IMG/VR virus record: IMGVR_UViG_3300043119_000318
Length of the DNA stretch: 64,000 nt
Strand: one strand, 5' to 3'
Source of the DNA: a virus
Lineage: Duplodnaviria > Heunggongvirae > Uroviricota > Caudoviricetes
Each line of letters begins with the position of its first letter. Position 1 is the first letter of the stretch. Of this stretch, positions 5,390 through 32,916 are shown one piece after another. The notes below the pieces were generated by a model. The model saw only the letters and a list, made by a program, of their open reading frames with translations. It had not been told where the DNA came from and did no database searches. Both the position numbers and the translations under genes were made by a program.

Positions 5390-5836
5390 TTACCCTATGT
5401 TTTTCATGGAAGCACGTAGCTGCCATGCATGTTTCTTATGTTTGTCTAGTCTGTCTGCAATAAAATTACAAAGACCTTGATTGTTTGCTGCCGTTCCGAG
5501 GCTGAATACTTTATTTAGGCTTTCAATAAGAATATTGTTTGCAGTCATTAGATTAGACAGCATATCAATGATCAGAACTGGACGAGCAGAATCTTCCTCT
5601 AGAGTTTTATACGCATAAAGCTCCATCAAGCTAATGGGAGCATATGCATCTAAAGCACGTAACTCTTCAGCAGTCGGATCAATGGCACCGTAAATGTCGT
5701 TGTATAAATCGCCAAAGAAATCGTGGTATTGGGAGAACATAATTCCCTCGATGTTCCAGTGATAAGATTGAGCTTTGAAGTACATGACGAAATTGTTCGC
5801 CAGTAAAATCTTCATTGCTGCTGTTAGTTCATTCAT
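5390..5836 (-). CDS. Dps/ferritin-like protein (DNA-protection-during-starvation family).
   Basis: A ~150-aa four-helix protein with a Dps-like ferroxidase signature (HWNIEG...F..YHDFF...D). Confidence 0.5.
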   Translation of the reverse strand: MNELTAAMKILLANNFVMYFKAQSYHWNIEGIMFSQYHDFFGDLYNDIYGAIDPTAEELRALDAYAPISLMELYAYKTLEEDSARPVLIIDMLSNLMTANNILIESLNKVFSLGTAANNQGLCNFIADRLDKHKKHAWQLRASMKNIG

Positions 5837-5845
5837 ACTATCTCC

Positions 5846-7621
5846 TTAAATTGCGACAGGTGTGCTGCTCTGAGTATATTTGCTGTGGCTAAGTCTAGCC
5901 TTTTCCATCTTCTTGATTCTTGGCACCATCTTAGTTGCGATGCGGGTTAGAACGTCTTTTCTCTTAGCCAGAGTAGCTTCAATTCTTTCCTTCTCACCAA
6001 CAGACAATTTAGCGACATCACGCCCGCGAACAAGACGCTGCTTGAATAACTTTACAGCCATGCGGCGGGCACGTTTGTTGATAGTTGCAGTGTTTGAGTA
6101 ACGCTTCAATGCTATTCTAGCAGAGCGTTCACGTTTAGCTTTTGTCTTTGCCATGCGAACTTTGGCGCGGATACGTTCTGCACGAGAAAGAACTTCCATT
6201 AGTGCAGCTTCGTTCATACCATCGTCTGGCAATTCTTCTCCGCTTTCGTCGTCGATGACACACAGTTCATCTTCATCGTATGCATCATAGAAGTCTTCAT
6301 CAGATAGAGTATCAATCATGGCGTCAATATCTTCCTCAGAAATATCTGCATGATCAATGTCGTTATGAGTGTCGTATGCACTCATGTCGATGTCATCAGC
6401 TTCTTCCTTGACCGTGGTAGCTTTCTTTGGACCTTTGATAGTACCAACTAGCTTGCTCTTGGTCATGGCAGCTATTGTTGCATTGGAGAATGCGTTGTTT
6501 GATTGATCAGGAACACCAAGCATCTTGGAATCATCAGCCATCTCGGGAGCTTTCTTATCAAACTTGATAGCAGCTTCTTTAATACCGTGTGGCTTTAAGT
6601 GTGCGTCGTAAGAAATACCAACTTCAGTGGCAAGCTCAAGCATCTTGGATAAGATCTTTAGAGCTTCAGCGTTGAGTGGTTTGCTGTTAATTTTACGAAG
6701 AGCGTTATTGACTAACTGCTCTGGAGAACTCATCGACTCAGCATCTTCGTTCCCTAACATGGTAGCAATGATTCGAGCTACTTTGATTTTATCAGAAGTT
6801 TTTAAAGTCTTAGTGGACAACTCTTCAACTAAGGTAACTTCGTGTATCCACTTGGAAACAAGTTTGCCAGAATCTTCTTTAACCAGTAGGTGATTAGTTC
6901 CACGCTTAATAATAGTGTAATGAACTCCTGCAGACTCAACGATGTCTCCAATGTTGAAGATCTCTTCACGGAAATACTTCTCGCGGAGTTCATTTTTAAC
7001 CAGAGAAACATGTTCCTTAATTGGAGCGTGACCCATACCGATTCTAATGTCGTTCATTAGACGACGACCATCAATGTCTCTAAGCGAAGAAGGCAGACCA
7101 CTCTTGAAAGTAGCGTAGTCACCTTTCTCTGCCAGAGCGCGCATCTTAGATGCAGACATTCCAGAAGCATCATCGGCATCTGGATCTCTTTCGCCTGCCG
7201 AAATGACTTGAACGGTATCAAAGTGAAACTCTGTACCGTTGTATTTGTTTAGAATTTTTACGTATTCAGATATACGGTCGCTGCCGGCGACCATAGTGAT
7301 GTTCTTATACTTCTTGTTTAGCTCTTTAGCAGCCTCGATAAAAGTACGAACATTGGCATCGGCAGCAATGAAATGCGTGTGTGGGAACATAAGGTTCAGA
7401 TAGTGAACCTTTTTGTCTACAGGGAGAGGATTTTTCTTTGCATCATTCGAACGAGATGCATAAATGGCATGATCAGCACCCTGAGCGGATGCTAATTTTT
7501 TAACGGCTTTGACGAGTAGCTCATGGCCAATTGTTGGAGGATTGAATCGTCCAAAGGCGAATACTACCGATTTTGAAGGTAATTCTTTTATTAGCTGTTT
7601 GTATCTTTTCATGTTATCCAT
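5846..7621 (-). CDS. Protein with an N-terminal HIGH-family nucleotidyltransferase (cytidylyl/adenylyl-transferase-like) domain and a long C-terminal region with acidic and basic stretches.
   Basis: It carries the FGRFNPPTIGHELL (HxGH) motif and an SASKMRA (ISSTxxR-like) motif as in NMNAT/PPAT-type enzymes. The C-terminal 400 aa have no recognisable motif. Confidence 0.45.
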   Translation of the reverse strand: MDNMKRYKQLIKELPSKSVVFAFGRFNPPTIGHELLVKAVKKLASAQGADHAIYASRSNDAKKNPLPVDKKVHYLNLMFPHTHFIAADANVRTFIEAAKELNKKYKNITMVAGSDRISEYVKILNKYNGTEFHFDTVQVISAGERDPDADDASGMSASKMRALAEKGDYATFKSGLPSSLRDIDGRRLMNDIRIGMGHAPIKEHVSLVKNELREKYFREEIFNIGDIVESAGVHYTIIKRGTNHLLVKEDSGKLVSKWIHEVTLVEELSTKTLKTSDKIKVARIIATMLGNEDAESMSSPEQLVNNALRKINSKPLNAEALKILSKMLELATEVGISYDAHLKPHGIKEAAIKFDKKAPEMADDSKMLGVPDQSNNAFSNATIAAMTKSKLVGTIKGPKKATTVKEEADDIDMSAYDTHNDIDHADISEEDIDAMIDTLSDEDFYDAYDEDELCVIDDESGEELPDDGMNEAALMEVLSRAERIRAKVRMAKTKAKRERSARIALKRYSNTATINKRARRMAVKLFKQRLVRGRDVAKLSVGEKERIEATLAKRKDVLTRIATKMVPRIKKMEKARLSHSKYTQSSTPVAI

Positions 7622-12261: not shown

Positions 12262-12282
12262 AACCCTACTCTCAGTAGGGTT
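12262..12282 (-). terminator. Terminator hairpin of the repeated cassette.
   Basis: AACCCTACtctcaGTAGGGTT, followed on the minus strand by TATCGC and a promoter. Confidence 0.5.
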
Positions 12283-13196
12283 TACCAGGGGTCTCCGGAC
12301 AACTTTACTGATGATGCCATCTTTTCAGATTCAAATTTAAATCGAATCTTCATTATCTTTTTACTACCAGCAGATACACCGATTGATTCATTACCAACGA
12401 TCTCTAACTTGATATCGTATTTACTAAGAGCATCTAGTTTTGGATTATTAATTGGATCCATAACCATTGCTTTATATGGTGCTTTGTTCCCTTGACCAGT
12501 AACTTTAATATAGGGAGGAGATATAACTTCAGCATCCATCCAATCTGATAGCAGATATTTCTTTAGCTCGGGTTGTTTCATTTTCTGTAAACGCAGCATC
12601 ATAACATCACGCATAGCTGCTAAAACCTTTACACCGATCTCTTCAGTCTGTTTTTTAATTCCAGGATTTTCTCGAATATATGGTTTTCTCAGAGTGTCAG
12701 ATGGAGGAAGATTAAACTTTTTAATTGTTTGCGCCAACTGATTCTTATATTCTTCACCAAGTTTAAGTCCAAGGTTTCTATCAACAGTTCCAACACCTGG
12801 ATTCTTAAATCCGATATCACCTTTGCCTTGAGTAGCTTTAGCTGACAGACCGAGGAATCCTTTAGATGGACCAGAGTTAAATTTAACTAAGATGTCTGTA
12901 GGATTTTTCTTCTGATCGACTGGTTCTCCAAAGGCATCAGCCATAGAACCTGGACGAGCAGTCCACCAGACCCCTACTATTGGAGTCTTATATCCATTTT
13001 GTTTCGCCCACTTAATGAATTCTTCTGCCATCACTGCAGATTTACCAATAGCATCAGCTACTTCATCAGCATTTGCTTGTTTGCATCTCTCGTTAAATTG
13101 CTGTTTAGCAGCGTTGTCGTACCATTCGTTTCCGTTTAGAACGTAGCCAGTGTAGATTTCATTGATATCTGATAGTATTGTATTTGCTGTTGCCAT
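12282..13196 (-). CDS. Hypothetical protein.
   Basis: A 304-aa ORF with no confident motif. It contains an SPPY tetrapeptide but no clear SAM-binding motif. Confidence 0.35.
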   Translation of the reverse strand: MATANTILSDINEIYTGYVLNGNEWYDNAAKQQFNERCKQANADEVADAIGKSAVMAEEFIKWAKQNGYKTPIVGVWWTARPGSMADAFGEPVDQKKNPTDILVKFNSGPSKGFLGLSAKATQGKGDIGFKNPGVGTVDRNLGLKLGEEYKNQLAQTIKKFNLPPSDTLRKPYIRENPGIKKQTEEIGVKVLAAMRDVMMLRLQKMKQPELKKYLLSDWMDAEVISPPYIKVTGQGNKAPYKAMVMDPINNPKLDALSKYDIKLEIVGNESIGVSAGSKKIMKIRFKFESEKMASSVKLSGDPW

Positions 13197-13238: not shown

Positions 13239-14585
13239 TCAACCAAAGAAAGATTCTAGATCTACAGTGTTATCTTCAAAGTGTTCATCAAACATTTTAC
13301 GAGCCAGCTTTGGCAGCTTAGGGTCGTGATTAGATTTGGTCTTCAATTCATTTAGATAACCAGTTTGCTTACCCATTGCGAGATCGACATAGTGCTGAGC
13401 GATCACCTTACGATCAAACTGTTTAATCAGTTCATAGTTGTTCAACTGAATCTGTTTGTATGCTTCTGGGCTCATATCGCAGTACTCTGTGATTTTTTCA
13501 GCGTATTGTCTTGGTGTATAAGAACGCTTCAACATACAATAATTGATACCTGCCTTTAGAACAACTCCATTACCTTCTTCGTTGTTGGAAACACCGTAGT
13601 TAATTGCAATGGGAACAGTACCAATACGCATGGCATCAATCACCACACGGTTGAAATGCTCGCCATAGGTATTTGACCAGCTTGGATCTACAAGAAATTT
13701 AGATGTAGTTAGGATCTCATCACGCTTACCGCCAGAGATAAAGCCAAGGTAGTCGAAGGTGCCAGAGTTTTCAGCATTTTCCCAGATACGCTTACCCAAC
13801 ATTTTGTCAGTTGCATCTGGATCATACTCCTTCGTACAGTAGTATTCTTCCTTACACTTTTCCTTGGACATCATGTATGCAGCTTCCATACCATAACCAC
13901 CTACCAGAGTTTTAACCATTGGCATGTGTGGAACTGCACGAACTAAGTCATCAACACGCTTCCAACGCTTGAATGTTTGAATAGAAAGGATCTTGTTCTC
14001 ACGACCAGCATATCTTGGAGTCTCAGGAATACCAGCGATGTCTTGTGGGTTCAGAATCATTGCACGCGGAACGTTCATGAAGTCAGCTGAATCATACGCT
14101 GCAGGATGCACACATGCCAGACCTGCAAAATGTTGTTCGAACAATTGAATCCAAGTATACAACTTCTTCAGATTACCGTCATGAATAATGGCAACTTGTT
14201 TCGCTTTAACCTTCTCGATCATCGGCAGCCAGTTGACATCTTTCTCAGTGTCTTTGTTCTTAAATCCAAAGATAGATTGCCAGATTACGATGTCATGTTT
14301 GTTAGCATCCTCAACGAATTTATTGATAGACTCTTTAACTTTGTAAGAGTAGTAAGGTGCCATCCAACCATCACCCTGGTGGACAGGATAACCTGAGCCA
14401 ACACCAATCTCCCATCCTTCACCCAGCGTTTCAGGAATCTGAACTGGGCGAACAGTTTTATTACCCTTCAAATATGCAAAGTTAACTTCGTGACCAAGCT
14501 CTTTTAAACCAGCCATCAAATGTTCACAGTGATTGATGATACCACCGAAGTTATTGAACGTATGCATTACCATTAAAATTTTCAT
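13239..14585 (-). CDS. GT-B fold glycosyltransferase (GT4-like) with a C-terminal clamp-binding-like tail (VDLESFFG).
   Basis: The N-terminus MKILMVMHTFNNFGGIINHCEHL...GHEV and the C-terminal EHFNRVVIDAMRIGTVPIA (Ex7E-type) block are GT4 hallmarks. The tail resembles T4 gp43 SLDFLFG. Confidence 0.6.
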   Translation of the reverse strand: MKILMVMHTFNNFGGIINHCEHLMAGLKELGHEVNFAYLKGNKTVRPVQIPETLGEGWEIGVGSGYPVHQGDGWMAPYYSYKVKESINKFVEDANKHDIVIWQSIFGFKNKDTEKDVNWLPMIEKVKAKQVAIIHDGNLKKLYTWIQLFEQHFAGLACVHPAAYDSADFMNVPRAMILNPQDIAGIPETPRYAGRENKILSIQTFKRWKRVDDLVRAVPHMPMVKTLVGGYGMEAAYMMSKEKCKEEYYCTKEYDPDATDKMLGKRIWENAENSGTFDYLGFISGGKRDEILTTSKFLVDPSWSNTYGEHFNRVVIDAMRIGTVPIAINYGVSNNEEGNGVVLKAGINYCMLKRSYTPRQYAEKITEYCDMSPEAYKQIQLNNYELIKQFDRKVIAQHYVDLAMGKQTGYLNELKTKSNHDPKLPKLARKMFDEHFEDNTVDLESFFG

Positions 14586-14599
14586 AATTATCTTTCAGT

Positions 14600-15937
14600 T
14601 TAAAAGAAGTCTTCAAGCGAAGATTTAACAGAGTCTGGATGATACTTCTGCAAAACAGTAGTTCCCATCTTCGATTCTAGGTAGTCATACCAGTCTTGGC
14701 TTTCCCACATACCAGAACCAACACCATTCCAGAGTGGACGCCACTCTGGATGTTCTTTATTTAGACGACGAGATTCAACAAAGTCAAATCGACAGTCTTC
14801 ATATTCCTTAGTACCGAGCTCAAGCATCTTCTCACGGAAGTAAACCACAAGCGAAATACGCTCAGAACCTTCTTGACAGACGATAGGAGTATTTCCGTGC
14901 ATAACTTCATGGTTGTTGATCAGAAGCAAATCACCGGGACGAACGTTAACAGCTACACGATACTCAGGTGCAACAAGGTAAGCACCGCTGTAACGACCAT
15001 CGTTGGATAGAGTCAACAAGTTAGACAACCCGCTAGTCAAGTCACCGGCATCGTAGTGAGCAGCTGTGCGGAAAGTTTTGTTAACAGTTACAGTGGTGAA
15101 TGGTGTTCCAGGAACCAGGAATTGCTTATCAATCTTCGAAGCAGCTTCCATTTGATTCCCATAACGCCATGGGAGCAAATCTTTAAATCCAGCAGCAAGG
15201 GTTTGTAGGAAAGGAAAAGCCATGGCAAACTTCTCAGGATTCTTCTGAGTATAAGAAGTGGCGCGACCATAAGGGATGCGTGGATAGCGATCGAACCAAC
15301 CAGCAATACCAGAGTTAACAGAGTTAGCATAGGTGGTGGCGCAGATCAGTTTCTCAGCCACGTACTTGGCGGAAGCAATCTGCTCATCCTCGGAAAGAAT
15401 TTTAGTGGCATCTACCCATGCTTCAAAGTTGAACTTATCTTTCTGAACACGGTCAATGGACCATACATTGGAACGATTCGAGATGACACCTTTCTTAGAA
15501 GCATGCTTCTTACGAATTTCTTCTACTGGATCTTCGCCGAACAGGTTACCAGTTGGCTTGAGAAAATAGTCAACCATGTCATACTCATACTCAGTGACCC
15601 AATCGCGATTGCCTAACTTATCAGCACGCGGACCTGCAGCCAAACCTCTGTTCTGAGTTTCGATGGCAGCTTCACGTAGACCTGCATAGGCAGCATCCTG
15701 CTGTTCTTTGGTGAAGAAGTTCTTGCGAAACTTCATGATGATTCTACGCTCGTCCTTATTCTCAATCGAATCACCATATTCTGGCGGAGCGTACACATCA
15801 CAATCTTCTTCCAACAGAACATCGTAGTGAGACTCGTCTAGAAATTGACCCAACAAATGAGTGCAATCATGTTTTCTATCAGCGACAATAACCTTTACCA
15901 TATAATTCTCCTTAGAACTTAAAACCTTCGTAGCCAT
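14600..15937 (-). CDS. 2OG-Fe(II) dioxygenase, a candidate nucleic-acid base oxygenase (TET/JBP-like), with C-terminal SSLEDFF identical to the tail of this phage's DNA polymerase.
   Basis: An HYD (HxD) motif, about 55 aa to NNHEVMHG, then ERIS (RxS) about 13 aa later. The final 7 aa are identical to those of gp43. Confidence 0.55.
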   Translation of the reverse strand: MATKVLSSKENYMVKVIVADRKHDCTHLLGQFLDESHYDVLLEEDCDVYAPPEYGDSIENKDERRIIMKFRKNFFTKEQQDAAYAGLREAAIETQNRGLAAGPRADKLGNRDWVTEYEYDMVDYFLKPTGNLFGEDPVEEIRKKHASKKGVISNRSNVWSIDRVQKDKFNFEAWVDATKILSEDEQIASAKYVAEKLICATTYANSVNSGIAGWFDRYPRIPYGRATSYTQKNPEKFAMAFPFLQTLAAGFKDLLPWRYGNQMEAASKIDKQFLVPGTPFTTVTVNKTFRTAAHYDAGDLTSGLSNLLTLSNDGRYSGAYLVAPEYRVAVNVRPGDLLLINNHEVMHGNTPIVCQEGSERISLVVYFREKMLELGTKEYEDCRFDFVESRRLNKEHPEWRPLWNGVGSGMWESQDWYDYLESKMGTTVLQKYHPDSVKSSLEDFF

Positions 15938-17315
15938 CTGTCTTCAACCGTTTACCGAATTCACTCTTATCAAACATCGGACCGTCATCATGGCTTCGTT
16001 TACCTGCGTCGGACAAACCTTCTTGAGCAGAAATCTCAACATCATAGAGTTTCATCTTCGAGCGATCAATACCAAGAACAAATCTCTTATAGTAGTTCAG
16101 ATCATTGTAACGGTTCTTCAATTGCTTAACGATGATCTGATTCAACTGCTCAAGTTCTTCGTTTGATACCAAGGCAAACATAAAGTCAGCAGTGGCAGGC
16201 AAGCCGAATGATTCTGAAGTATCTTCCAATCCTGGATCGCTATTCGTGAAACCACCTCTGGTAGTTTGAGTTGCCGAAATAATCGGAACGTTGTACTCTA
16301 CTGCCAGACCACGAAGCTCTTCAGCGATTGCCTTTACATATGTATAAGAATTTACATTCGCTCCCTGCTTCATACGTTGAGAAGCGCAGATGTTTAAATA
16401 GTCGATCATGATAATGTCAGGGATGAATTCTCGCTTTAGCTTTAGCTCTTCTAACAAGGCACGGAAATGTCCAGCGTGCGCTGATGCAGTAGGATACTCT
16501 TTGACGATTAGCTTACCTTGAGTCTTTTTAGCGATTTTACCAATACGCGTATTGAAGACTTCTCTATCAACAACCTTCAATTCATCCATGGTCAGGTTCA
16601 AGAGATTCGCGTCAATACGTTCTGCGATGCGCTCCTCAGCCATTTCCATAGTTATGTATAAGACATTTCTACCCTTGGTTAGTGCACCAGCTGCCACGTG
16701 ACACATGAACAAAGACTTACCAACACCAGTGCCGGCAAGCGCAATGTTTAGAGTTTTACGAGACAGACCACCTTTAGTGATAAGGTTAAACATCTCCAAA
16801 TCGAACGGAATCTTTTCTTCTATTCTGTTATAGAAGTCAAATCGTTCCTCAGCATTCTCAATGTAATCATGACCAATGTGATTGTCAAAGCAAGTGCCAA
16901 GTGCTTCAGACAACAATGAAGGGATCGCATCCTTACTGTGGACTTGGTCTTTTCCTTCAATGATTTTAATGGAAGCAAGAATGGCGTTGTAAACTGCTCG
17001 GTCTTTACAGAATTGCTCTGTTTGCTCAAGCAGCCATTCTTGGTTCTTTTCTTGAGTGTTTAGACTTTGAAGATATTCAGTATATTCTGGGACTTCTTTG
17101 TCAGTCAACCCCTTGAGGTTGGCGATCTCAATAGCCAGAATTTCTGTAGATGCTGTCTTATTGTACTTCGTGAAGAAGGAAACAACAAGACTTGCGATCA
17201 TAGCATCTTTGCGATCCGCAAAGTATTCTTTCTTAAGATGTGGAACTACCTTTCTGCAATACTCCTCATTATTGATGAGATTTGAAAGAATCGTTTTCTC
17301 TAGAGTCATCAACAC
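15912..17315 (-). CDS. 41: Replicative DNA helicase, DnaB-like (T4 gp41 homologue).
   Basis: Walker A GTGVGKS and RecA-like DnaB C-domain. The N-terminal region is similar to T4 gp41. Confidence 0.8.
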   Translation of the reverse strand: MLMTLEKTILSNLINNEEYCRKVVPHLKKEYFADRKDAMIASLVVSFFTKYNKTASTEILAIEIANLKGLTDKEVPEYTEYLQSLNTQEKNQEWLLEQTEQFCKDRAVYNAILASIKIIEGKDQVHSKDAIPSLLSEALGTCFDNHIGHDYIENAEERFDFYNRIEEKIPFDLEMFNLITKGGLSRKTLNIALAGTGVGKSLFMCHVAAGALTKGRNVLYITMEMAEERIAERIDANLLNLTMDELKVVDREVFNTRIGKIAKKTQGKLIVKEYPTASAHAGHFRALLEELKLKREFIPDIIMIDYLNICASQRMKQGANVNSYTYVKAIAEELRGLAVEYNVPIISATQTTRGGFTNSDPGLEDTSESFGLPATADFMFALVSNEELEQLNQIIVKQLKNRYNDLNYYKRFVLGIDRSKMKLYDVEISAQEGLSDAGKRSHDDGPMFDKSEFGKRLKTDGYEGFKF

Positions 17316-17639: not shown

Positions 17640-18203
17640 TTAGTCTCCAATCAATGCAAGTTCAGCATCAATGTCTTCACCCTTCATAATTTCTGAAGTC
17701 GAAACTTGATACTTATTTTTAACAAACTCAGAGAAAGTCTTTTGCTGAATAATTGGAAGCCAGAAGTCTTTGCTATCGGTATCCTTCAGACGATACTTTT
17801 TATCTTCAACAACGCCATCTTGATCTACTTTGCTGTACCATCCATTGCTTGGTTTAACGACATGTCCAGATTCTAGAGCAATGTCAAGTAAGCCAGACCA
17901 ACGGCTAATGCCGCCGTCAAAAGATACGCTAACAGGTATTTTAGATTTCTCACGAACATAACGACTCTTTTCTACGTTGATGATAAAGTTGTAACCAACA
18001 ATTTCAGTTCCGTCTTTTTCTTGTTGACGACCAAGAATGAAGATATTGTCAGCAGAGTAGTAAGAACCAGTGTTATGAGTAACTACTCCATTTTCTAACA
18101 CATAATGTTCAACATCCTTTACTGAAATGTCATATACCTTCTTTTTACCAACAGGTGTTATCGATTTAATTTTCATTTTGCGGTTTCCTTTTACATTTAT
18201 CAT
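17640..18203 (-). CDS. uvsX: UvsX recombinase C-terminal fragment, preceded by the C-terminal half of a split intein (IntC).
   Basis: The N-terminal 44 aa, KKKVYDISVKDVEHYVLENGVVTHN, are followed by the +1 Thr (intein blocks F/G). The remainder, GSYYSADNIFILGRQQ...FINVEKSR...SGLLDIALESG, aligns to T4 UvsX from MTGG|TGVMYSADTVFIIG onward. Confidence 0.75.
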   Translation of the reverse strand: MINVKGNRKMKIKSITPVGKKKVYDISVKDVEHYVLENGVVTHNTGSYYSADNIFILGRQQEKDGTEIVGYNFIINVEKSRYVREKSKIPVSVSFDGGISRWSGLLDIALESGHVVKPSNGWYSKVDQDGVVEDKKYRLKDTDSKDFWLPIIQQKTFSEFVKNKYQVSTSEIMKGEDIDAELALIGD

Positions 18204-18870
18204 TATGCCATCTTTTTATATTAGAGGCAGTCGTCACAGTATCACAATGAGAACATTTATATTTCTGTTCGGGTTTCAATTTTCTTGGGTTAACCCAATC
18301 GGAACAATTAAATCTACCATCAGAAATTGATACTCTAATTATTTCTTTAGTATGCACATTTTGTAACATTCTAAGACCCTTCTTTCCGATCTTCTCTCTA
18401 TGTTCATTAGATTTCGGTTTTTTGGCGACCATCTCAACCCAATCAGATATCTGTTTTTCAGTTCTATAATTCTTTCCAGAATGTATATTAGATAATTTCT
18501 GTTTAGTTTCTTCAGAATGGTGTTTACCATAGAAATTGTTACCTTCACCTGAATACTGTATCGATAGAATTTTTGAACGTTCTTTTTTACAGTATTCAAA
18601 TAAATGAGAATTTATAGATCTGGCGCTTTGACCAACCCCAATTCTACTCATCGAATGCCATGCATGAACCAGACTACTAGTTTTATACATTTTATACAAC
18701 AACCAATGCGCCAAATAGTGCTGTCTTGCAGTTAGTAGAACTAGATTCTCTTTAGAGTCATCACCACCCATACAACAAGGTATTATATGATGAGATTCCT
18801 TATAGTCATCTAGTTTTGGATTAGTTTTAGCATCTAAAACTAAGTTCTCGTAAATTTTATAATAGTTCAT
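18166..18870 (-). CDS. Free-standing HNH homing endonuclease.
   Basis: HHIIPCCMGGDDSKENLVLLTARQHYLAH (HNH) near the N-terminus. It lies in a different frame between the two uvsX halves. It has its own TATAAATA late promoter and a GGAGG Shine-Dalgarno sequence. Confidence 0.75.
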   Translation of the reverse strand: MNYYKIYENLVLDAKTNPKLDDYKESHHIIPCCMGGDDSKENLVLLTARQHYLAHWLLYKMYKTSSLVHAWHSMSRIGVGQSARSINSHLFEYCKKERSKILSIQYSGEGNNFYGKHHSEETKQKLSNIHSGKNYRTEKQISDWVEMVAKKPKSNEHREKIGKKGLRMLQNVHTKEIIRVSISDGRFNCSDWVNPRKLKPEQKYKCSHCDTVTTASNIKRWHNDKCKRKPQNEN

Positions 18871-18886
18871 AGTTTCCTCCTACAAC

Positions 18887-18894
18887 TATTTATA
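18887..18894 (-). promoter_or_regulatory. T4-type late promoter TATAAATA serving the HNH endonuclease gene.
   Basis: The minus strand reads TTTTATAAATAGTTGTAGGAGGAAACTATG: TATAAATA, 16 nt, then ATG, with a GGAGG Shine-Dalgarno sequence. Confidence 0.55.
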
Positions 18895-18906
18895 AAATTT
18901 TGAATC

Positions 18907-19815
18907 TTAGTATTCAGCTGATTCCATACCAACAGCCAAATTTTTAGCCTCTACCCATTCATTATTAATTAAAAATTTGTGTTTATCTGAACAAATAACC
19001 TTATATCCATCTTCAAATTCCACCTCAAAACACTCAGGCTCGCCATCTTCTAGTGTTTCTGGATTCCAGGTATATGTTACTTCTTTGCTACCATCAAGGG
19101 TTTTAACTAAATCACCAACTACGAAATCCTCAATAGATTTATATGTTCCATCTGATAGTTCTATTTTCGTGCCTGCAACCAAACAACCACCACCAACGAT
19201 GTCCTTTGGATACAATCCGATTTCTTTATACGTATGGTTCACAACAACCATAGGAATATCCTTCATGGTCAAGTGTGGAGTTACCATACGGAACAACGAC
19301 TTCATTTGCTTGGCACGGCTCATATCGGCAACCGACTTACCGTCCAAGGCATCCTCGACTTCTTTCTTAGAAGCAAGATTACCAATGGAGTCAATGATGA
19401 TCATGATTTTATCACTACGCTCGATGACAGAAAGTTGCTGCATGATATCAAACTTCAACTGTTCAACGTCCATGATTGGAGTATGCACAACACGCGAAGT
19501 ATCAATACCAAACGAATCGAAGTAAGACTGTGGAGTGCCGAACTCAGAATCATAGAACAGCAAAGCTGATTCTGGATACTTGTCCATGTATGACTTTGCC
19601 ATCAGCAAAGAGAATGCGGTCTTAAAGTGTTTCGATGGACCTGCCCACATCGTGAGTCCAGGAACGAATCCACCGTCAAGTCGACCTGAAAGTGCGACGT
19701 TGATTACGGGAATAGAAGTGGGAATCATATCCTTCTTCTGAAAGAACTTTGATTGTGCAAGAATCGCAGTTTCTTTAATTGTAGTATTTTTCTTAATTTT
19801 ATCTAGTATGCTCAT
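18907..19815 (-). CDS. uvsX: UvsX recombinase N-terminal fragment (RecA-like core, Walker A/B), fused in frame to the N-terminal half of a split intein (IntN).
   Basis: A RecA/UvsX-like N-extein up to IVGGG. From Cys211 the sequence reads CLVAGTKIELSDGT...SDKHKFL (Hint blocks A and B) and ends after about 93 aa. Confidence 0.8.
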   Translation of the reverse strand: MSILDKIKKNTTIKETAILAQSKFFQKKDMIPTSIPVINVALSGRLDGGFVPGLTMWAGPSKHFKTAFSLLMAKSYMDKYPESALLFYDSEFGTPQSYFDSFGIDTSRVVHTPIMDVEQLKFDIMQQLSVIERSDKIMIIIDSIGNLASKKEVEDALDGKSVADMSRAKQMKSLFRMVTPHLTMKDIPMVVVNHTYKEIGLYPKDIVGGGCLVAGTKIELSDGTYKSIEDFVVGDLVKTLDGSKEVTYTWNPETLEDGEPECFEVEFEDGYKVICSDKHKFLINNEWVEAKNLAVGMESAEY

Positions 19816-19833: not shown

Positions 19834-20385
19834 TTATGGGTTCCATCGTGAATGAGGAACATCGAATACAAAAGTTATTCGAACACAGTCACCGGTGTTT
19901 TCTGTTCCATGTAATAATTTATTGTTGAACCAAAGTAGAGTACCAGGTTCAACATCAACAAATTCGTCACCTACATGGTAACGATAGGTTCCTTGAATTG
20001 ATAGATGATATCTATCTTTTGTTTGGTAGTAGCTACCGTCATCGATATGTAAACCAACATGACCACCTACAGGTAGAGACAAAAAACCACACCGTTTGAA
20101 AGTGTTAAGTCTATTTCGCTTTAACCAAGAAATGATTTCTGTGTGTCGATGATATGCTGGTGTGGCTACAGAAAGCTCACTATCTCCAACGAAATCTTTA
20201 GCGGCGCGTACTGCACCAATAACCAGCTGCAGCACGTCCGCATTAATATCATCGTATCCACGATCTAGAAGGGACTCAACTTTTTCGAGTTTCTTTTGAG
20301 AACCCCAATCTTCTGGATACTGTTCTAGCTGTTTGAGTATCTTAGAGACATTGATTCCTGTCTTAATAACTCTGATGTTTTTCAT
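19834..20385 (-). CDS. Cupin / 2OG-Fe(II) oxygenase-like protein.
   Basis: HIDDG (HxD) and LLHGTEN (distal His) motifs. Size and fold are typical of cyanophage 2OG oxygenases. Confidence 0.45.
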   Translation of the reverse strand: MKNIRVIKTGINVSKILKQLEQYPEDWGSQKKLEKVESLLDRGYDDINADVLQLVIGAVRAAKDFVGDSELSVATPAYHRHTEIISWLKRNRLNTFKRCGFLSLPVGGHVGLHIDDGSYYQTKDRYHLSIQGTYRYHVGDEFVDVEPGTLLWFNNKLLHGTENTGDCVRITFVFDVPHSRWNP

Positions 20386-20630
20386 GCAAGAAATTCTAAC
20401 AACTGGGCTTCTGACATAGAGCCAACCTTGCGTTTAACTTCCGCATTGTTTTCATTGACAATGATCATCGTGGGCACGGAACGAATGCCATAGTGCAGTG
20501 CTGCAGCAGTGTCATGGTCAATATCAATTTCTTCAATGGGCACTGTGATTTTATCGCCGGCATTTTTAATAATTTGCGTCATCGATTTGCACGGTGCGCA
20601 CCATTCTGCTTTAAATTTTAATACTCTCAT
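20382..20630 (-). CDS. Thioredoxin or glutaredoxin-like protein.
   Basis: WCAPCK active site. The start was set at the internal Met (MRVLKF) preceded by AAGGAAAC. The longer ORF-track version would overlap the upstream gene by about 80 nt. Confidence 0.6.
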   Translation of the reverse strand: MRVLKFKAEWCAPCKSMTQIIKNAGDKITVPIEEIDIDHDTAAALHYGIRSVPTMIIVNENNAEVKRKVGSMSEAQLLEFLA

Positions 20631-20638
20631 AGGTTTCC

Positions 20639-21256
20639 TTATGTGTAATGACAATACGTTGATAGTATGTATTTTGAGTTGCTGATAGGTGGAAGTGCCT
20701 TGTGTGGGTACATCCACATTGGAGGGAATACTACTATTCTACCTCGCCTTGGGTTAATACTCAAATCTTTTTCTGGATAAAAACTTGAGTCATTGAAAAC
20801 CGTTTGTCCGCCGTCTTCAACATCATTCAGATAAAAGAACATCGAAAGGAACCTGCGCGCAGAAGAATAATCTCCAACGTCACTATGCCAGTCAAACTTA
20901 TCCGTATCGTTTACACTATACTTCTTAAGTCTAAGTTCTTCATATCCAATTTTAGTTGGGAAGAATTCGATCTCACATTTTTCTTTATAGAACTCAACTA
21001 GATTTTTACTTAAAGTGTAGAGCTCTATACAGTTTTCTTGAAATTCTTCTTCTTTAGTTAAGTTTAACTCGTCGAATCTTTTCTGATAAGAACCATGCCA
21101 AGTAGCTTCTGTAGATTCAACATTTAGTGAAGCATCAAATTTTTCAATAAGCTCATTGCATAATTCATCGCTCAATACGTCGTCAAGAATCATAACGTAA
21201 TCAGATAGCTTTTTCAAAAGAAGTCCTCCAATGAAGATTGTTGTTCGGTTTTCCAA
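20639..21256 (-). CDS. 2OG-Fe(II) oxygenase, prolyl-4-hydroxylase-like.
   Basis: HSDVGD (HxD) and a distal His in PPMWMYPHKA. P4Hc-type composition. Confidence 0.55.
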   Translation of the reverse strand: MENRTTIFIGGLLLKKLSDYVMILDDVLSDELCNELIEKFDASLNVESTEATWHGSYQKRFDELNLTKEEEFQENCIELYTLSKNLVEFYKEKCEIEFFPTKIGYEELRLKKYSVNDTDKFDWHSDVGDYSSARRFLSMFFYLNDVEDGGQTVFNDSSFYPEKDLSINPRRGRIVVFPPMWMYPHKALPPISNSKYILSTYCHYT

Positions 21257-28352: not shown

Positions 28353-28785
28353 TTTTCACCTCTAATTTAGTTTTCTTAGAACCTATGTTATATTTAGGCA
28401 CTAGTTGCCAATTTGCCTTCTCTTTATAGGAGACGACCTTAATTTGAGACATAGATGCTTTTGGTTCTGCCTTGGCAGCAACTACGATCTTTAGAAGATC
28501 CCAGTCCTGAAGCAGAGTTGCAATGGCATTTCTACGCTCGATATCCTCTAAAGAAATGTTCGATTCTTTGCCGTCTAAAGCAAACAATTCTTTAAAGTGT
28601 ACAATGAAATACCTACCTTGTTTATGTAAGATATGACAAGATTGGTATAATGTATTTTCTTTTCTGGAAGCAATTCCGATTCTAGTTAGAGTTTCACGAA
28701 CCTTCAAAAAGTTGTCAGGTTCGGGAAGAATAATCTCTAACATGGAATCTTGTTTCCAGTCGTAGTAGATCATTTCGATAGTCAT
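28345..28785 (-). CDS. regA: RegA-like translational repressor.
   Basis: PDNFLKVRETLTRIGIA...LYQSCHILHKQGRYFIVHFKE...WQLVPKYNIG matches T4 RegA (PEDFLKVKETLTRMGIA...LYQSCHILQKKG...WKLVPKYTIG). Confidence 0.7.
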   Translation of the reverse strand: MTIEMIYYDWKQDSMLEIILPEPDNFLKVRETLTRIGIASRKENTLYQSCHILHKQGRYFIVHFKELFALDGKESNISLEDIERRNAIATLLQDWDLLKIVVAAKAEPKASMSQIKVVSYKEKANWQLVPKYNIGSKKTKLEVKND

Positions 28786-29165
28786 TTTCCACCTTTATAT
28801 AGTTTTTCTTTTATTACTTTTAGTTGATCACTCGAAAGAACTTTTAAAGCACCTTTCGCCTTTTCGATGGAATAACCATAATATTCCATAACCAAGTTTA
28901 AATCATCAGAGTTCTTGTCTTTTTTATGCCAAGCACTCCAACGTTTCCCTTTAGGTATACTATTTAGTAAATATTGAAATTGATTTTCTTTATCAAGGTG
29001 ATGTAATCTATTCATTTCATTGACATGAAAGATCGTATCATGGTAAAACGACAATCCGAGATTAACTACCCAAGGGCTATATGCTTTCTTAGCGACAAGG
29101 GGATCCTCTAGAAACAAATCCTTCTTGGACGTATTTATGGCATTAATAAAGTCAAAGGGTTTCAT
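28782..29165 (-). CDS. 62: Clamp-loader small subunit (gp62 homologue).
   Basis: YLLNSIPKGKRWSAWHKK resembles T4 gp62 YLMAAVPRGKRYGKWAKL. Position matches the T4 order 44-62-regA. Confidence 0.6.
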   Translation of the reverse strand: MKPFDFINAINTSKKDLFLEDPLVAKKAYSPWVVNLGLSFYHDTIFHVNEMNRLHHLDKENQFQYLLNSIPKGKRWSAWHKKDKNSDDLNLVMEYYGYSIEKAKGALKVLSSDQLKVIKEKLYKGGK

Positions 29166-29482
29166 TTAAATCCCACATTCTCTAAGTTATCATTGGATGC
29201 TCCAAACATAATTACATGTGGATAAAGCTCTCTAAGGTGTTCCTCTAATTCTTCTCGAGTATTACCTTGAGCCATAAACGCGCCATCTTCTGCGCTATAA
29301 CAGAAGAAAATATCATTATGCTTTTCTATAATTATACGAAAAACTTCTTGAGGTATAGCTTCTTCATTTTCTTCAACTGATTCTAGCTTATTTATAAGAG
29401 AGTTTATTCTATAAACAGCGTATGCCTCACGAAGAAGCCAGCCAACGCCAAATGCAACAATGGAAGCTAGAATGATTTCCAT
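29162..29482 (-). CDS. Small membrane protein.
   Basis: N-terminal hydrophobic helix. Lies between gp44 and gp62. Confidence 0.3.
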   Translation of the reverse strand: MEIILASIVAFGVGWLLREAYAVYRINSLINKLESVEENEEAIPQEVFRIIIEKHNDIFFCYSAEDGAFMAQGNTREELEEHLRELYPHVIMFGASNDNLENVGFK

Positions 29483-29486
29483 ATAC

Positions 29487-30437
29487 TTATTTGAACTTAC
29501 AAGTTGCCATGATCTCAGTCATAGCTGCCATGATATTGATTTCTTGGTCTGCCACGAATGCTGCCTTGTATTGGTATTCACCAAGGGTAACTACCAGAGT
29601 AGGAATACCCGCTGGCTCAATGATAGTCAACGCTTTATCATAAAACTCACGGAACAATGCAGCAGAATCTCCTTCACTATTCTTGGCAACCCACTTGCGC
29701 ACTTCAGTGAAGTTCTTTTCCTTCATATACTTGAGCAGTTCCTTGAAGGATTCTTCACCGAGATTGATAAGGATACCAGTATCAATCGTACCAGAAACCG
29801 AGTACCTCTGAAGCTCGTTCAGAATACGGCGGAAGTCTGGGAAGTGTTTCGTGACAAGTTCAGCGACAACCTTCTGATCAAAGGTGACGTTCTCGTTGTT
29901 TAGAATTTCTACAATGCGACGATAGAAGTTAGAAGCAATCTTAGGTTTGTCGGCAGCGTCAATCTTAAAGTCGATGACAGAACAACGAGAATGCAATGGC
30001 GCAATGATCTTGTTCTTGAAGTTACAAGTAAAGATGAACCGGCAATTGTTGCTAAACTCTTCAATAAATGCACGCAAAGCAGGTTGAACGCTTTCGGCAT
30101 TCATATAATCTGCCTCGTCCATGATGATAACTTTCTTAGCATCAGTCAGAGAAACAGTGGAGGCAAACTGTTTAATCTTCAGACGAACAGTTTCAATGTG
30201 ACGACCTTCATCAGAGCCGTTGATGAGCAGGTACTCAGCACCAATCTCATTACATAGTGCTTTAGCTACAGTGGTTTTACCAACACCTGCTCCGCCAGTG
30301 AATAGAAAGTTTGGGATGTTCCCAGATTCTACATATTCGCGGAAGGTCTTCTTCAGAGATTCCGGCAGAACACAGTCATTAATCTTCTGTGGGCGATATT
30401 TCTCACACCACAAGAATTGGTCTTCACGATTTTCCAT
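29487..30437 (-). CDS. 44: Clamp-loader ATPase (gp44, RFC-like AAA+).
   Basis: Walker A FTGGAGVGKTT, Walker B IIMDEAD and an SRC-like region. Confidence 0.8.
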   Translation of the reverse strand: MENREDQFLWCEKYRPQKINDCVLPESLKKTFREYVESGNIPNFLFTGGAGVGKTTVAKALCNEIGAEYLLINGSDEGRHIETVRLKIKQFASTVSLTDAKKVIIMDEADYMNAESVQPALRAFIEEFSNNCRFIFTCNFKNKIIAPLHSRCSVIDFKIDAADKPKIASNFYRRIVEILNNENVTFDQKVVAELVTKHFPDFRRILNELQRYSVSGTIDTGILINLGEESFKELLKYMKEKNFTEVRKWVAKNSEGDSAALFREFYDKALTIIEPAGIPTLVVTLGEYQYKAAFVADQEINIMAAMTEIMATCKFK

Positions 30438-30503: not shown

Positions 30504-31166
30504 TTAAGCGTCAAACGTTGAATCTGCCTCAACAGCTACGTAGTAAACCAAATCAGTGGAGACGCTTTTGAACCTAGAGATTTTCTTGCTAGAGATGCTA
30601 ACTGCGTAGTCACCTGCCAACATCTTCAGGTTTTCAACCTTCAAGTTTACATGGAAAGATTTATCGGTAGTTCCAACCAACTTGTTGTAGTTGTTACCAG
30701 TTGCATTCTTCTTGTCTCCGACTTGAAGCATCAAGCGAGCACTGTCACCAACGATGGACAAATCTTCAGCGCGAAGAACAGATGCAGTGCGGCGGATCAT
30801 ATCTAGCATAGCTGCGGTCAAGGTAAAGTCAACGTCGCTGGCAGGGAAAGTGATGCTCTTGCTAGGAACAGTCAAGACAGAAGCATCCGCACCATAGAAC
30901 TTGATATTGGCATCACCCTCTTTGATGTTGATATACTTCTCTGCAAAATCGAGTTCAGGGTCACTGAACAGTGACATTGCACCCAAGAATTCATTCAGGT
31001 CGTAGATACCAATTTCAGATGGGATAGTTTCAGCAATGGTAACATCGGACATGACGTTCTTCATTGCTGAAATGGTTGACAACTTCGTTCCTGGCTTCAA
31101 CAGGATATTGCTGTTGATGGAAGCGAAGTTCTTAAAAATGGCTAGGGTGTCTTTAGATAGTTTCAT
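30504..31166 (-). CDS. 45: Sliding clamp (gp45 homologue).
   Basis: N-terminal MKLSKDTLAIFKNFASINS matches T4 gp45 MKLSKDTTALLKNFATINS. C-terminal YYVAVEADSTFDA matches NYVVALEADSTHDF. Confidence 0.85.
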   Translation of the reverse strand: MKLSKDTLAIFKNFASINSNILLKPGTKLSTISAMKNVMSDVTIAETIPSEIGIYDLNEFLGAMSLFSDPELDFAEKYINIKEGDANIKFYGADASVLTVPSKSITFPASDVDFTLTAAMLDMIRRTASVLRAEDLSIVGDSARLMLQVGDKKNATGNNYNKLVGTTDKSFHVNLKVENLKMLAGDYAVSISSKKISRFKSVSTDLVYYVAVEADSTFDA

Positions 31167-32402: not shown

Positions 32403-32642
32403 TCAGAACAAAATAACAATAATAGACAAAAAGCAAACAACAAGAACAGCAATACCCGAACTATACGCAGCAGTTTTCATGATATTCCAACGTTCTTTGT
32501 TAGAAAATTTACGAAATAGGTCAATCCCAGTATAGAAAATAATACAGAGACAAATGAATGTAACTAGCATTTTAATCACAAGTAGGTTCCTTTGAGTATA
32601 AAACGTCATGTTCATACAAGAAAGCCAAACAACACATAGCAT
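32403..32642 (-). CDS. Small membrane protein.
   Basis: Two hydrophobic helices. Overlaps the upstream ORF. Confidence 0.25.
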   Translation of the reverse strand: MLCVVWLSCMNMTFYTQRNLLVIKMLVTFICLCIIFYTGIDLFRKFSNKERWNIMKTAAYSSGIAVLVVCFLSIIVILF

Positions 32643-32916
32643 GAGCCAGGTGATGGATTCCAGATTCTGGATCTAGATCCTCGCCCATTTTCCACGCCCA
32701 GATATGACGTTCCATTGCATCGAAATATCGAGTCAAAGAATCCGGCACAACTTTCCAATTGTCTGGTTCATATTTCTCAGCACCAAATGTGAGAACCTTA
32801 ACCATCTCTGCCATGGCTAGCGGTGGGATCAAACCATAACGGAGTTTACCGCCGTCAAACTTTCGCCCACCGCTAGTGGCTAGCTGAGATGCTTTAATGT
32901 CATCTACAGTAGCCAT
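32572..32916 (-). CDS. Hypothetical conserved protein.
   Basis: A 114-aa ORF with no motif assigned. Confidence 0.3.
   Translation of the reverse strand: MATVDDIKASQLATSGGRKFDGGKLRYGLIPPLAMAEMVKVLTFGAEKYEPDNWKVVPDSLTRYFDAMERHIWAWKMGEDLDPESGIHHLAHAMCCLAFLYEHDVLYSKEPTCD

Follow-up and report, generated by a model that had tools for sequence, protein, structure and literature searches.

The 64,000-nt stretch of IMG/VR virus record IMGVR_UViG_3300043119_000318, analysed here as a whole and referred to as the window, comes from an uncultured T4-like myovirus and is gene-dense, with transcription from the minus strand, on which all window genes given coordinates below lie. Directly behind the gp41-type replicative helicase (15912-17315; Pfam DnaB_C on orthologues) are 2 genes for putative DNA-modifying enzymes: a predicted TET/JBP-family (5mYOX) 2-oxoglutarate (2OG)/Fe(II) DNA dioxygenase, hereafter TET (14600-15937; longest open reading frame [ORF] 445 amino acids [aa]), and a 448-aa predicted glycosyltransferase (GT) of GT-B fold and GT4 (retaining) type (13239-14585; Pfam, AlphaFold2 [AF2] and Foldseek). 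The GT starts 14 nt beyond the TET stop, so that the spacing of gp41, TET, and GT resembles that of a single transcription unit. Both proteins end in a short peptide resembling the C-terminus of the family-B DNA polymerase gp43 of the same phage (21214-23700; Pfam DNA_pol_B and DNA_pol_B_exo1).

For the 445-aa ORF, the first-pass annotation had reported a complete 2OG-Fe(II) dioxygenase signature, and its coordinates, length and motifs hold up: we located HYD at residues 294-296, NNHEVMHG at 341-348 and RIS at 360-362. The distal histidine is H347, 53 residues beyond H294, with R360 following another 13 residues on. A 42-sequence alignment in which identity falls to approximately 30% shows no variation at H294, D296, H347, or R360, and the iron- and 2OG-binding residues align with the HxD motif and the H...RISLVFY segment of TET2. 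Pfam PF12851 (Tet_JBP) matches with 88.6 bits (cut-off 34.9; E 3.4e-25) over residues 219-369, corresponding to profile positions 12-164 of 164, and precomputed PF12851 assignments are present on all 120 listed homologues. The AF2 model has a predicted local distance difference test (pLDDT) score of 91.3. When this model was compared with the PDB via Foldseek, ranks 1-26 were taken by TET2, CcTet, CMD1, and NgTET1 (E from 4.8e-11 for the best match to 1e-7), with FTO and ABH2 ranked below; neither prolyl hydroxylases nor PhyH were among the 50 matches listed. A search of PDB sequences with a profile of the family gave TET2 as the sole match (1.2e-8). The Pfam score, the structural matches, and the profile search thus agree in placing the enzyme in the TET/JBP family and not in a protein or small-molecule hydroxylase family, and on this sequence and model evidence we assign the 445-aa protein as a TET/JBP dioxygenase.

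TET is a 3-part protein, with an N-terminal domain (approximately residues 13-200), a double-stranded beta-helix catalytic domain (approximately 205-370), and a helical C-terminal extension with the tail at its end. A large number of phage TET/JBP proteins of approximately 300 aa share 40%-45% identity with the catalytic core. The N-terminal domain of approximately 190 aa is family specific and confidently folded, and a profile search with it against PDB sequences found no relatives. Homologues are numerous in metagenomes (>3,000), mostly begin with MVKVIVA... and are 432-433 aa long. Given that an AAGGAG, overlapping the TAA stop codon of gp41, precedes a candidate start codon for M13 (ATG at 15901) by 7 nt, the true start is probably M13, which would give a protein of 433 aa without gp41 overlap. 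Some orthologues (e.g., P0002 and P0029 in alignments A1/A3) carry a Cys-rich insert of approximately 20 aa in the N-terminal domain (CD...C...C..C), possibly a zinc knuckle, that is not present in the window protein. Several other labels were rejected. The "SNF2 DNA repair protein" annotation of the TET homologues of phages DLP6, Cr30, and S-CBWM1 is a mis-annotation, as the window protein has no Pfam SNF2 domain; a weak PHROG label, "queuine tRNA-ribosyltransferase" (E 2e-5), is a naming artefact, the aligned region being the dioxygenase core; and a resemblance to TauD/clavaminate synthase was dropped because it is below threshold and confined to the last strands of the common fold.

The second protein had been described as a GT-B/GT4 glycosyltransferase as well, and both its N-terminal MKILMVMHTFNNFGG and its EHFNRVVIDAMRIGTVPIA block are found in ORF 13239-14585. 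Pfam PF00534 (Glycos_transf_1) matches above threshold (36.8 bits versus a cut-off of 26.4; E 3.6e-9), and the AF2 model (pLDDT 87.3) has 2 Rossmann domains in a GT-B arrangement, confirming that description. Residues E309, H310, F311, N312, R313, and D317 are invariant in 31 homologues; by sequence comparison, E309-x7-D317 (EHFNRVVID) is a candidate for the EX7E-type catalytic/donor-binding motif of the C-terminal domain, with Asp instead of Glu as the second acid. Foldseek matches include PimA, BshA, MshA, and glycogen synthase (E 1e-13 to 1e-11), and rank 14 is the DNA-bound T4 alpha-glucosyltransferase (1y6f_B; E 2.2e-11). At the sequence level there is no similarity to T4 alpha-GT (BLASTP E 0.43), no Pfam match to T4 beta-GT (PF09198) or TAGT (PF20691), and no match among PDB sequences. 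A relationship to known DNA glycosyltransferases therefore stands for the fold of T4 alpha-GT and fails for every known DNA-GT family by sequence, so that the model identifies the 448-aa protein as a GT-B/GT4 glycosyltransferase whose likeness to T4 alpha-GT is at the level of the fold only. All of its 286 homologues are metagenomic. A protein search of 50,697 phage records and of PHROGs gave no match, and therefore no cultured phage carries this GT4.

As the first-pass annotation had also observed, both enzymes end in a polymerase-like tail, and this proves to match the cognate gp43. The polymerase terminates in ...EQQSSLEDFF, TET in ...VKSSLEDFF (SSLEDFF plus stop at 14600-14623; PIP-box-like as KSSLEDFF), and the GT in ...VDLESFFG (DLESFFG plus stop at 13239-13262; motif scan), and these are the only 3 window ORFs with such an ending. 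The QSSLEDFF of gp43 fits the PIP-box consensus Qxxhxxaa, which we took from the literature (PMC3012046) and of which the T4-type variant is S-L-[DE]-x-F-[FL]; the PIP-box tail of T4/RB69 gp43 has been seen bound to the sliding clamp gp45 in a crystal structure (PMC3012046). In T4, gp43 (SLDFLFG) and gp55 (SLDFLY...) bear the T4 version of the motif. The last 7 residues (SSLEDFF) are identical in TET and the window polymerase, and 3 of the 7 codons differ synonymously, showing that the tail is not a recent DNA copy. In the AF2 models, the pLDDT of the dioxygenase drops to 64 in the last block, consistent with a flexible tail, while that of the GT tail is below 50, i.e., predicted to be disordered. 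The putative docking partner of the tails is encoded in the window: gp45 (30504-31166; Pfam gp45-slide_C and DNA_PPF) has 33% full-length identity to T4 gp45 (E 5e-29), and a clamp loader (28782-30437; Pfam AAA, Gp44_lid, and Phage_clamp_A) consists of gp44 (29487-30437) and a gp62-like subunit (28782-29165), separated by a small ORF.

To follow the tail beyond the window we counted it in approximately 140 related loci, using a strict motif (L[DE]xFF(x)$) and a looser one. It is nearly universal in the gp43 polymerase (51 of 53 strict, 53 of 53 loose) and in TET (118 and 128 of 133). Complete GT4 homologues carry it in 22 of 41 cases by the strict motif and in all 41 by the loose one, their common ending being [DSGN]L[DE]x[FL]F[GA], and TAGT proteins carry it in 7 and 8 of 8. 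A GNAT-like protein, which typically ends in PSLEEFLV, matches only loosely (0/27 strict, 26/27 loose), and AADT, in which a weaker GLExF ending is common, scores 2/41 and 9/41. By either motif the tail is absent from gp41 (111 proteins), the amidotransferase (59), the kinase (34), p238 (48), and DUF6267 (43), and each of the 13 ORFs that seemed to match, out of 684 others, is a fragment of a truncated polymerase or GT4, which confines the tail to the polymerase and modification enzymes. Only 4 of 93 TETs of 250-420 aa have it, and it belongs to the long T4-lineage TET family. In the distant phage DLP6, the endings of polymerase (ATLDSFFA), TET (ATLGDFFV), and a TAGT-like protein (DLSSFFN) resemble one another. 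Full-text literature searches found no description of polymerase-type clamp tails on modification enzymes, and word searches found no mention of a clamp tail in the text of PMC13229309 or in that of the T4 glucosyltransferase preprint. The closest published idea is gp45 binding by T4 alpha-GT, a protein that does not have this motif. The gp41 helicases of this lineage have a conserved C-terminal tail of their own, F-x-G-F-K-F, unlike that of polymerase and TET, which presumably binds a different replisome partner.

The pairing of dioxygenase and glycosyltransferase had been proposed from a single locus, and its recurrence shows it to be meaningful: wherever an IMG/VR locus extends 2.5 kb or more upstream of GT4, a TET gene lies within 1.5 kb upstream of the latter (38 of 38 cases). 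The TETs at GT4 loci are 41%-72% identical to the window TET and the GTs 77%-85% identical to the window GT; because the GTs stay similar while the linked TETs diverge, the GT cassette appears to move between diverged TET backgrounds. On its other side, TET directly follows gp41 in 57 of the 65 loci with enough upstream sequence. What comes after TET varies. Among 75 loci with enough downstream sequence, 57 have a glutamine amidotransferase (GATase_6) with AADT (PF18724) and P-loop kinase 3 (PF18751), 10 have a 335-aa protein without an assigned family, 7 have TAGT (PF20691), and 1 has GT4. Some AADT/kinase cassettes add a GNAT-like, amidoligase-like, phosphatase, or ParB_N protein. TET orthologues paired with GATase/AADT/kinase or TAGT are approximately 68%-82% identical to that of the window and occupy the same gp41-adjacent slot. 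The pair gp41-TET is thus a conserved anchor, and the genes after TET form an exchangeable tailoring cassette of at least 4 types, of which GT4 is one.

The sister loci hold further enzymes. ParB_N proteins are encoded in 8 related loci, in which the TETs are approximately 74% identical to the window TET; among the scanned window ORFs (Pfam scans covered those of at least approximately 90 aa), there is no ParB_N match. The ParB_N protein has 431 aa and lies between the amidotransferase region and AADT (L019, 9127-10422; also L024-L027), and the TETs of these loci bear the clamp tail as well, so that ParB and clamp tail co-occur. An association of ParB, AADT, P-loop kinase, and amidotransferase has been reported for phage thymine dioxygenases (PMC13229309). 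Genes for sugar activation adjoin TET and GT in relatives, among them an RfaE-domain-II-like nucleotidyltransferase between TET and GT4, which suggests ADP-heptose and CDP-glycerol as candidate donors, and genes of DLP6 and C48C1 described below. In some cassettes, a second, small oxygenase (2OG-FeII_Oxy_5, 197-215 aa) directly follows TET (L017, 7184-7777; L124, 2551-3198) and precedes the 335-aa protein or GT4; it may add a further oxidation step. Cultured phages offer more variants. Stenotrophomonas phage DLP6, with a TET 50% identical to that of the window, has a sugar-1-phosphate nucleotidyltransferase and a TAGT-like gene beside it, and its DNA is listed as restriction-enzyme resistant in a review table (PMC8228603). 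In phage C48C1 (L003, 7938-11385), TET is followed by a 344-aa protein without an assigned function and then by a UDP-galactopyranose mutase, and in Caulobacter phage Cr30 (L002, 8001-14474) the genes close to a TET homologue encode an AADT-like protein of 409 aa and an inositol-1-phosphate synthase. These neighbours hint at other unusual DNA adducts, galactofuranose- or inositol-based, in cultured phages.

Which base the module would act on was addressed via gene context. As had been remarked at the outset, no cytosine methyltransferase is visible: Pfam detects no methyltransferase domain in the scanned window ORFs, and C5-methyltransferase motif IV is absent from all frames of the 64 kb. Published 5-methylcytosine (5mC) systems have the methyltransferase as an immediate neighbour (PMC8256090), and a C5-methyltransferase is found in only 6% of phage 5mYOX contigs (PMC13229309). 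AADT, P-loop kinase, and amidotransferase form a recognised toolkit for thymidine hypermodification via 5-hydroxymethyluracil (5hmU). Because the cassettes of the TET orthologues are mostly this thymidine toolkit and the window has no C5-methyltransferase, the likeliest route suggested by the sequences is thymine to 5hmU to glycosyl-5hmU. The gene context hence favours the thymine alternative that the first-pass annotation had left standing beside cytosine, and we regard thymine as quite probably the substrate, leaving the remainder to 5mC made by a methyltransferase encoded outside the window. A possible shortcut, deducing substrate preference from the residue that follows HxD (D299 versus N1387 in TET2), was rejected since NgTET1, a 5mC enzyme, presumably has Asp at the matching position too.

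From the family, fold, catalytic residues, gene linkage, and motif distribution observed, we propose that the module is a two-enzyme cassette for post-replicative DNA hypermodification in an uncultured T4-like myovirus; sequence, fold, and context are our grounds for proposing a substrate base, DNA as the acceptor for the GT, docking on the clamp, and a biological role. In this model, replication would load gp45 clamps onto phage DNA, and TET would dock on gp45 via its PIP tail and hydroxylate the C5-methyl of a pyrimidine in the new duplex, most likely converting thymine to 5hmU. The GT would dock in the same way and transfer a sugar from a nucleotide-activated donor onto the 5hmU hydroxyl. 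The expected product is a base-J-like glycosyl-5hmU, with a retaining (alpha) linkage predicted from the GT4 fold. Both enzymes would modify new DNA processively behind the fork, and the modified DNA would resist host nucleases. For the model as a whole, with clamp-docked TET and then GT4 decorating phage DNA and thymine as the likeliest base, we estimate a probability of roughly 0.62.

Several observations weigh against it. One would expect the P-loop kinase of the sister cassettes to act on DNA as well, but no tail is present on it, and the tail of AADT is weak, so that a rule by which DNA-acting enzymes carry the tail is not clean. Neither T4 alpha-GT nor T4 beta-GT has such a tail, and a proposed interaction of T4 alpha-GT with gp45 was not reproduced (bioRxiv 10.64898/2025.12.06.692756). 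The likeness of the GT to GT4 enzymes acting on small molecules or lipids is at least equal to that to T4 alpha-GT. The substrate base is not readable from sequence, and the window represents 64 kb of a genome of approximately 140-170 kb, so a methyltransferase could sit outside it. Finally, a lack of activity on T and 5mC in Escherichia coli has been reported for some clade C1 phage dioxygenases that have no ParB partner (PMC13229309).

We weighed 3 alternative explanations. The same module could act on 5mC, with a C5-methyltransferase, of the phage or its host, whose gene lies beyond the window, TET producing 5-hydroxymethylcytosine (5hmC), and the GT glycosylating the latter. There is precedent in phage clade A/B TETs, which act on 5mC and have adjoining GT-B enzymes that glycosylate 5hmC (PMC8256090; bioRxiv 10.1101/2023.12.21.572611), and the closest solved structures are all 5mC dioxygenases; moreover, the inspection covered only part of the genome. 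However, the absence of both methyltransferase domain and motif IV from the window, the adjacency of the methyltransferase in published systems (here the neighbours are gp41 and the GT), its rarity in phage 5mYOX contigs, and the pairing of orthologues of approximately 68%-82% identity with the AADT, P-loop kinase, GATase, and ParB of the 5hmU toolkit make this unlikely, even if it is the best of the 3. Next comes the proposal that the shared peptide does not bind the clamp and has no part in linking modification with replication: a different protein (gp32, helicase loader, protease, or chaperone) might recognise it, or it might have been left behind when gene ends recombined. The tail-less kinase and the failure to reproduce the T4 alpha-GT-gp45 interaction speak for this, but QSSLEDFF fits the PIP consensus exactly, the equivalent T4/RB69 tail was crystallised on gp45 (PMC3012046), and T4 gp55, a known gp45 client, ends in the similar motif SLDFLY. 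In addition, the DLP6 tails track the tail of the cognate polymerase, and the tails are synonymously diverged yet kept across hundreds of diverged orthologues in 5 unrelated enzyme folds, indicating selection on the peptide. We therefore consider a partner other than the clamp, or a mere relic, improbable.

The least probable of the alternatives, in our view, is that TET acts on DNA while GT4 glycosylates a protein, lipid, or small molecule, such as a virion protein or a host envelope precursor, and merely shares the operon. This would fit the top structural matches, which comprise PimA, BshA, MshA, glycogen synthase, and the protein O-GlcNAc transferases SdgB/GtfA ahead of T4 alpha-GT at rank 14, as well as the lack of sequence similarity to any known DNA GT and the labelling of GT homologues as cell-wall glycosyltransferases by JGI. 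Resemblance to BshA/MshA is, however, also a property of published phage GT-B enzymes that act on DNA (bioRxiv 10.1101/2023.12.21.572611). The linkage to TET holds in 38 of 38 loci across TETs diverged to 41% identity, GT4 fills the slot taken by TAGT or the AADT/kinase cassette in sister phages, and the polymerase-type tail is on 41 of 41 GT4 homologues and on no structural or metabolic protein of these loci. Taken together, these arguments lead us to prefer clamp-docked TET and GT4 acting in succession on phage DNA.

The route as such is not new, contrary to what the first-pass annotation implied: phage TET/5mYOX pathways with GTs, thymine dioxygenases, and 5mYOX-associated DNA glycosyltransferases of both GT-A and GT-B type have been published (PMC8256090; bioRxiv 10.1101/2023.12.21.572611; PMC13229309). 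With the phage 5mYOX enzymes, especially the thymine dioxygenases of O'Toole et al. 2026 (PMC13229309) and the TETs of Burke et al. 2021 (PMC8256090), the window TET shares the Pfam family, the catalytic residues, and, putatively, post-replicative 5-methylpyrimidine oxidation as the first step of hypermodification. It also has no adjacent C5-methyltransferase, and genes near its orthologues encode GATase, P-loop kinase, AADT, and in some cases ParB, as described for the clade C1/ParB-dependent group (PMC13229309). GTs are the commonest 5mYOX neighbours, at 31% (PMC13229309). By contrast, the window TET measures 433-445 aa versus approximately 290-300 aa for characterised stand-alone enzymes, with the N-terminal domain of approximately 190 aa and the C-terminal extension with its PIP tail as additions, and it sits in a fixed post-gp41 slot of T4-like genomes with no ParB among the scanned window ORFs.

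Base J synthesis in trypanosomatids, by the thymidine hydroxylases JBP1/2 and the glucosyltransferase JGT, would be similar in that a TET/JBP enzyme converts T to 5hmU in the DNA polymer before O-glycosylation. JGT is GT-A-like (bioRxiv 10.1101/2023.12.21.572611), however, whereas the window GT is GT-B/GT4, and JBP is targeted by a J-binding or SWI2/SNF2 domain, where the window enzymes would rely on a clamp tail. The T4 glucosyl-hydroxymethylcytosine system likewise belongs to a T4-like phage, involves glycosylation of a hydroxymethyl-pyrimidine (putative in our case) by genes of the replication cluster, and includes alpha-GT of the same GT-B fold. It differs in that the hydroxymethyl base is made before replication, at the nucleotide level, by a thymidylate-synthase-like enzyme, while oxidation here would take place in the polymer; the GTs have no sequence similarity, and those of T4 are without clamp tails. 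The first-pass annotation had also called the T4 neighbourhood syntenic. A replication-gene neighbourhood is indeed common to both, but the slot is not: beta-gt and gene 42 are located between gene 43 and uvsX in T4, not behind gene 41 as the modification genes are here. TAGT (PF20691), the family that includes the T2/T6 beta-glucosyl-HMC-alpha-GT (HMC, hydroxymethylcytosine), has the same position right after TET in sister phages and the same tail, but it is an unrelated family that the window GT does not match. With established PIP-box clients such as T4/RB69 gp43 and gp55 on gp45, the window proteins have in common a flexible, hydrophobic-acidic C-terminal peptide carried by the polymerase and other clamp users; the difference is that the putative clients here are a dioxygenase and glycosyltransferases, joined in sister phages by a GNAT-like protein and AADT. 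DNMT1 on PCNA is an analogous case. What is distinct at this locus is the larger, 3-part dioxygenase, the gp41-adjacent slot with exchangeable cassettes, a GT4 absent from cultured phages, and the polymerase-type tails. The tails are the most distinctive result, and clamp tethering is the part most worth pursuing.

In addition to gp43, gp45, and the clamp loader gp44/62, the window encodes RegA, UvsX, UvsW, UvsY, gp46/47, ligase, gp23, portal, sheath, and terminase. By polymerase, the nearest cultured phages are cyanomyoviruses, at only approximately 55% identity, and a nucleotide search of the phage collection with the window gave no match. Immediately after the GT is a 304-aa ORF (12282-13196) without a match in Pfam, PHROGs, NCBIfam, or the PDB. 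As it is present in several AADT/kinase-type sister loci too, at 70%-77% identity, it is not GT specific and was left out of the module; an SPPY tetrapeptide in this ORF found no support as a methyltransferase motif. Further along, a 591-aa protein (5846-7621) has a borderline N-terminal cytidylyltransferase-like match (20.4 bits versus a cut-off of 21), and a ferritin-like protein (5390-5836) adjoins it. Sister contigs encode larger homologues, and DLP6/Cr30 have "cytidylyltransferase" genes, which suggests that the 591-aa protein is a conserved nucleotidyltransferase that might supply an activated donor. A 114-aa protein (32572-32916) that may alter the nucleotide pool strongly matches PF18909, the N-terminal domain of dATP/dGTP diphosphohydrolase (E 4.6e-35).

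Between gp43 and uvsX are 2 further 2OG/cupin-type oxygenases (19834-21256), both without a clamp tail: a 2OG-FeII_Oxy_3 (prolyl-hydroxylase-like) protein (20639-21256) and an Asp/Arg-hydroxylase-like cupin (19834-20385), with a thioredoxin between them. The uvsX gene itself is in 3 parts across 17640-19815. Its N-terminal RecA part is fused to the N-half of an intein (18907-19815; ...GGGCLVAGTKIELSDG...), a free-standing HNH/NUMOD3 homing endonuclease ORF follows (18166-18870), and the C-half of the intein (...VVTHN) is fused to the UvsX C-part (17640-18203). This arrangement looks like a "fractured gene" with a split intein.

DNA hypermodification decides whether phage DNA is open to restriction enzymes, CRISPR nucleases, and sequencing chemistries, and phage TET-type enzymes are under development as reagents for epigenetic sequencing. 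The locus described here places a TET-first, post-replicative route inside the core replication module of widespread uncultured T4-like phages. The clamp tails bear on how post-replicative modifiers reach near-complete coverage of a fast-replicating genome, and on why some such enzymes are inactive in heterologous hosts. More broadly, gp45 may serve in this lineage of T4-like phages as a processivity or activation platform for an exchangeable toolkit (TET/JBP, GT4, TAGT, GNAT-like, and AADT proteins), each member using a copy of the polymerase PIP tail, a proposal for which we see the chances as even. If true, these phages would have an equivalent of DNMT1-PCNA coupling, functionally similar to the way in which a ParB clamp activates other phage thymine dioxygenases, and a requirement for gp45 could explain the inactivity of ParB-less clade C1 enzymes expressed alone in E. 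coli. Should the cognate clamp and its loader switch these enzymes on, a large set of uncharacterised DNA-modifying enzymes would be unlocked.

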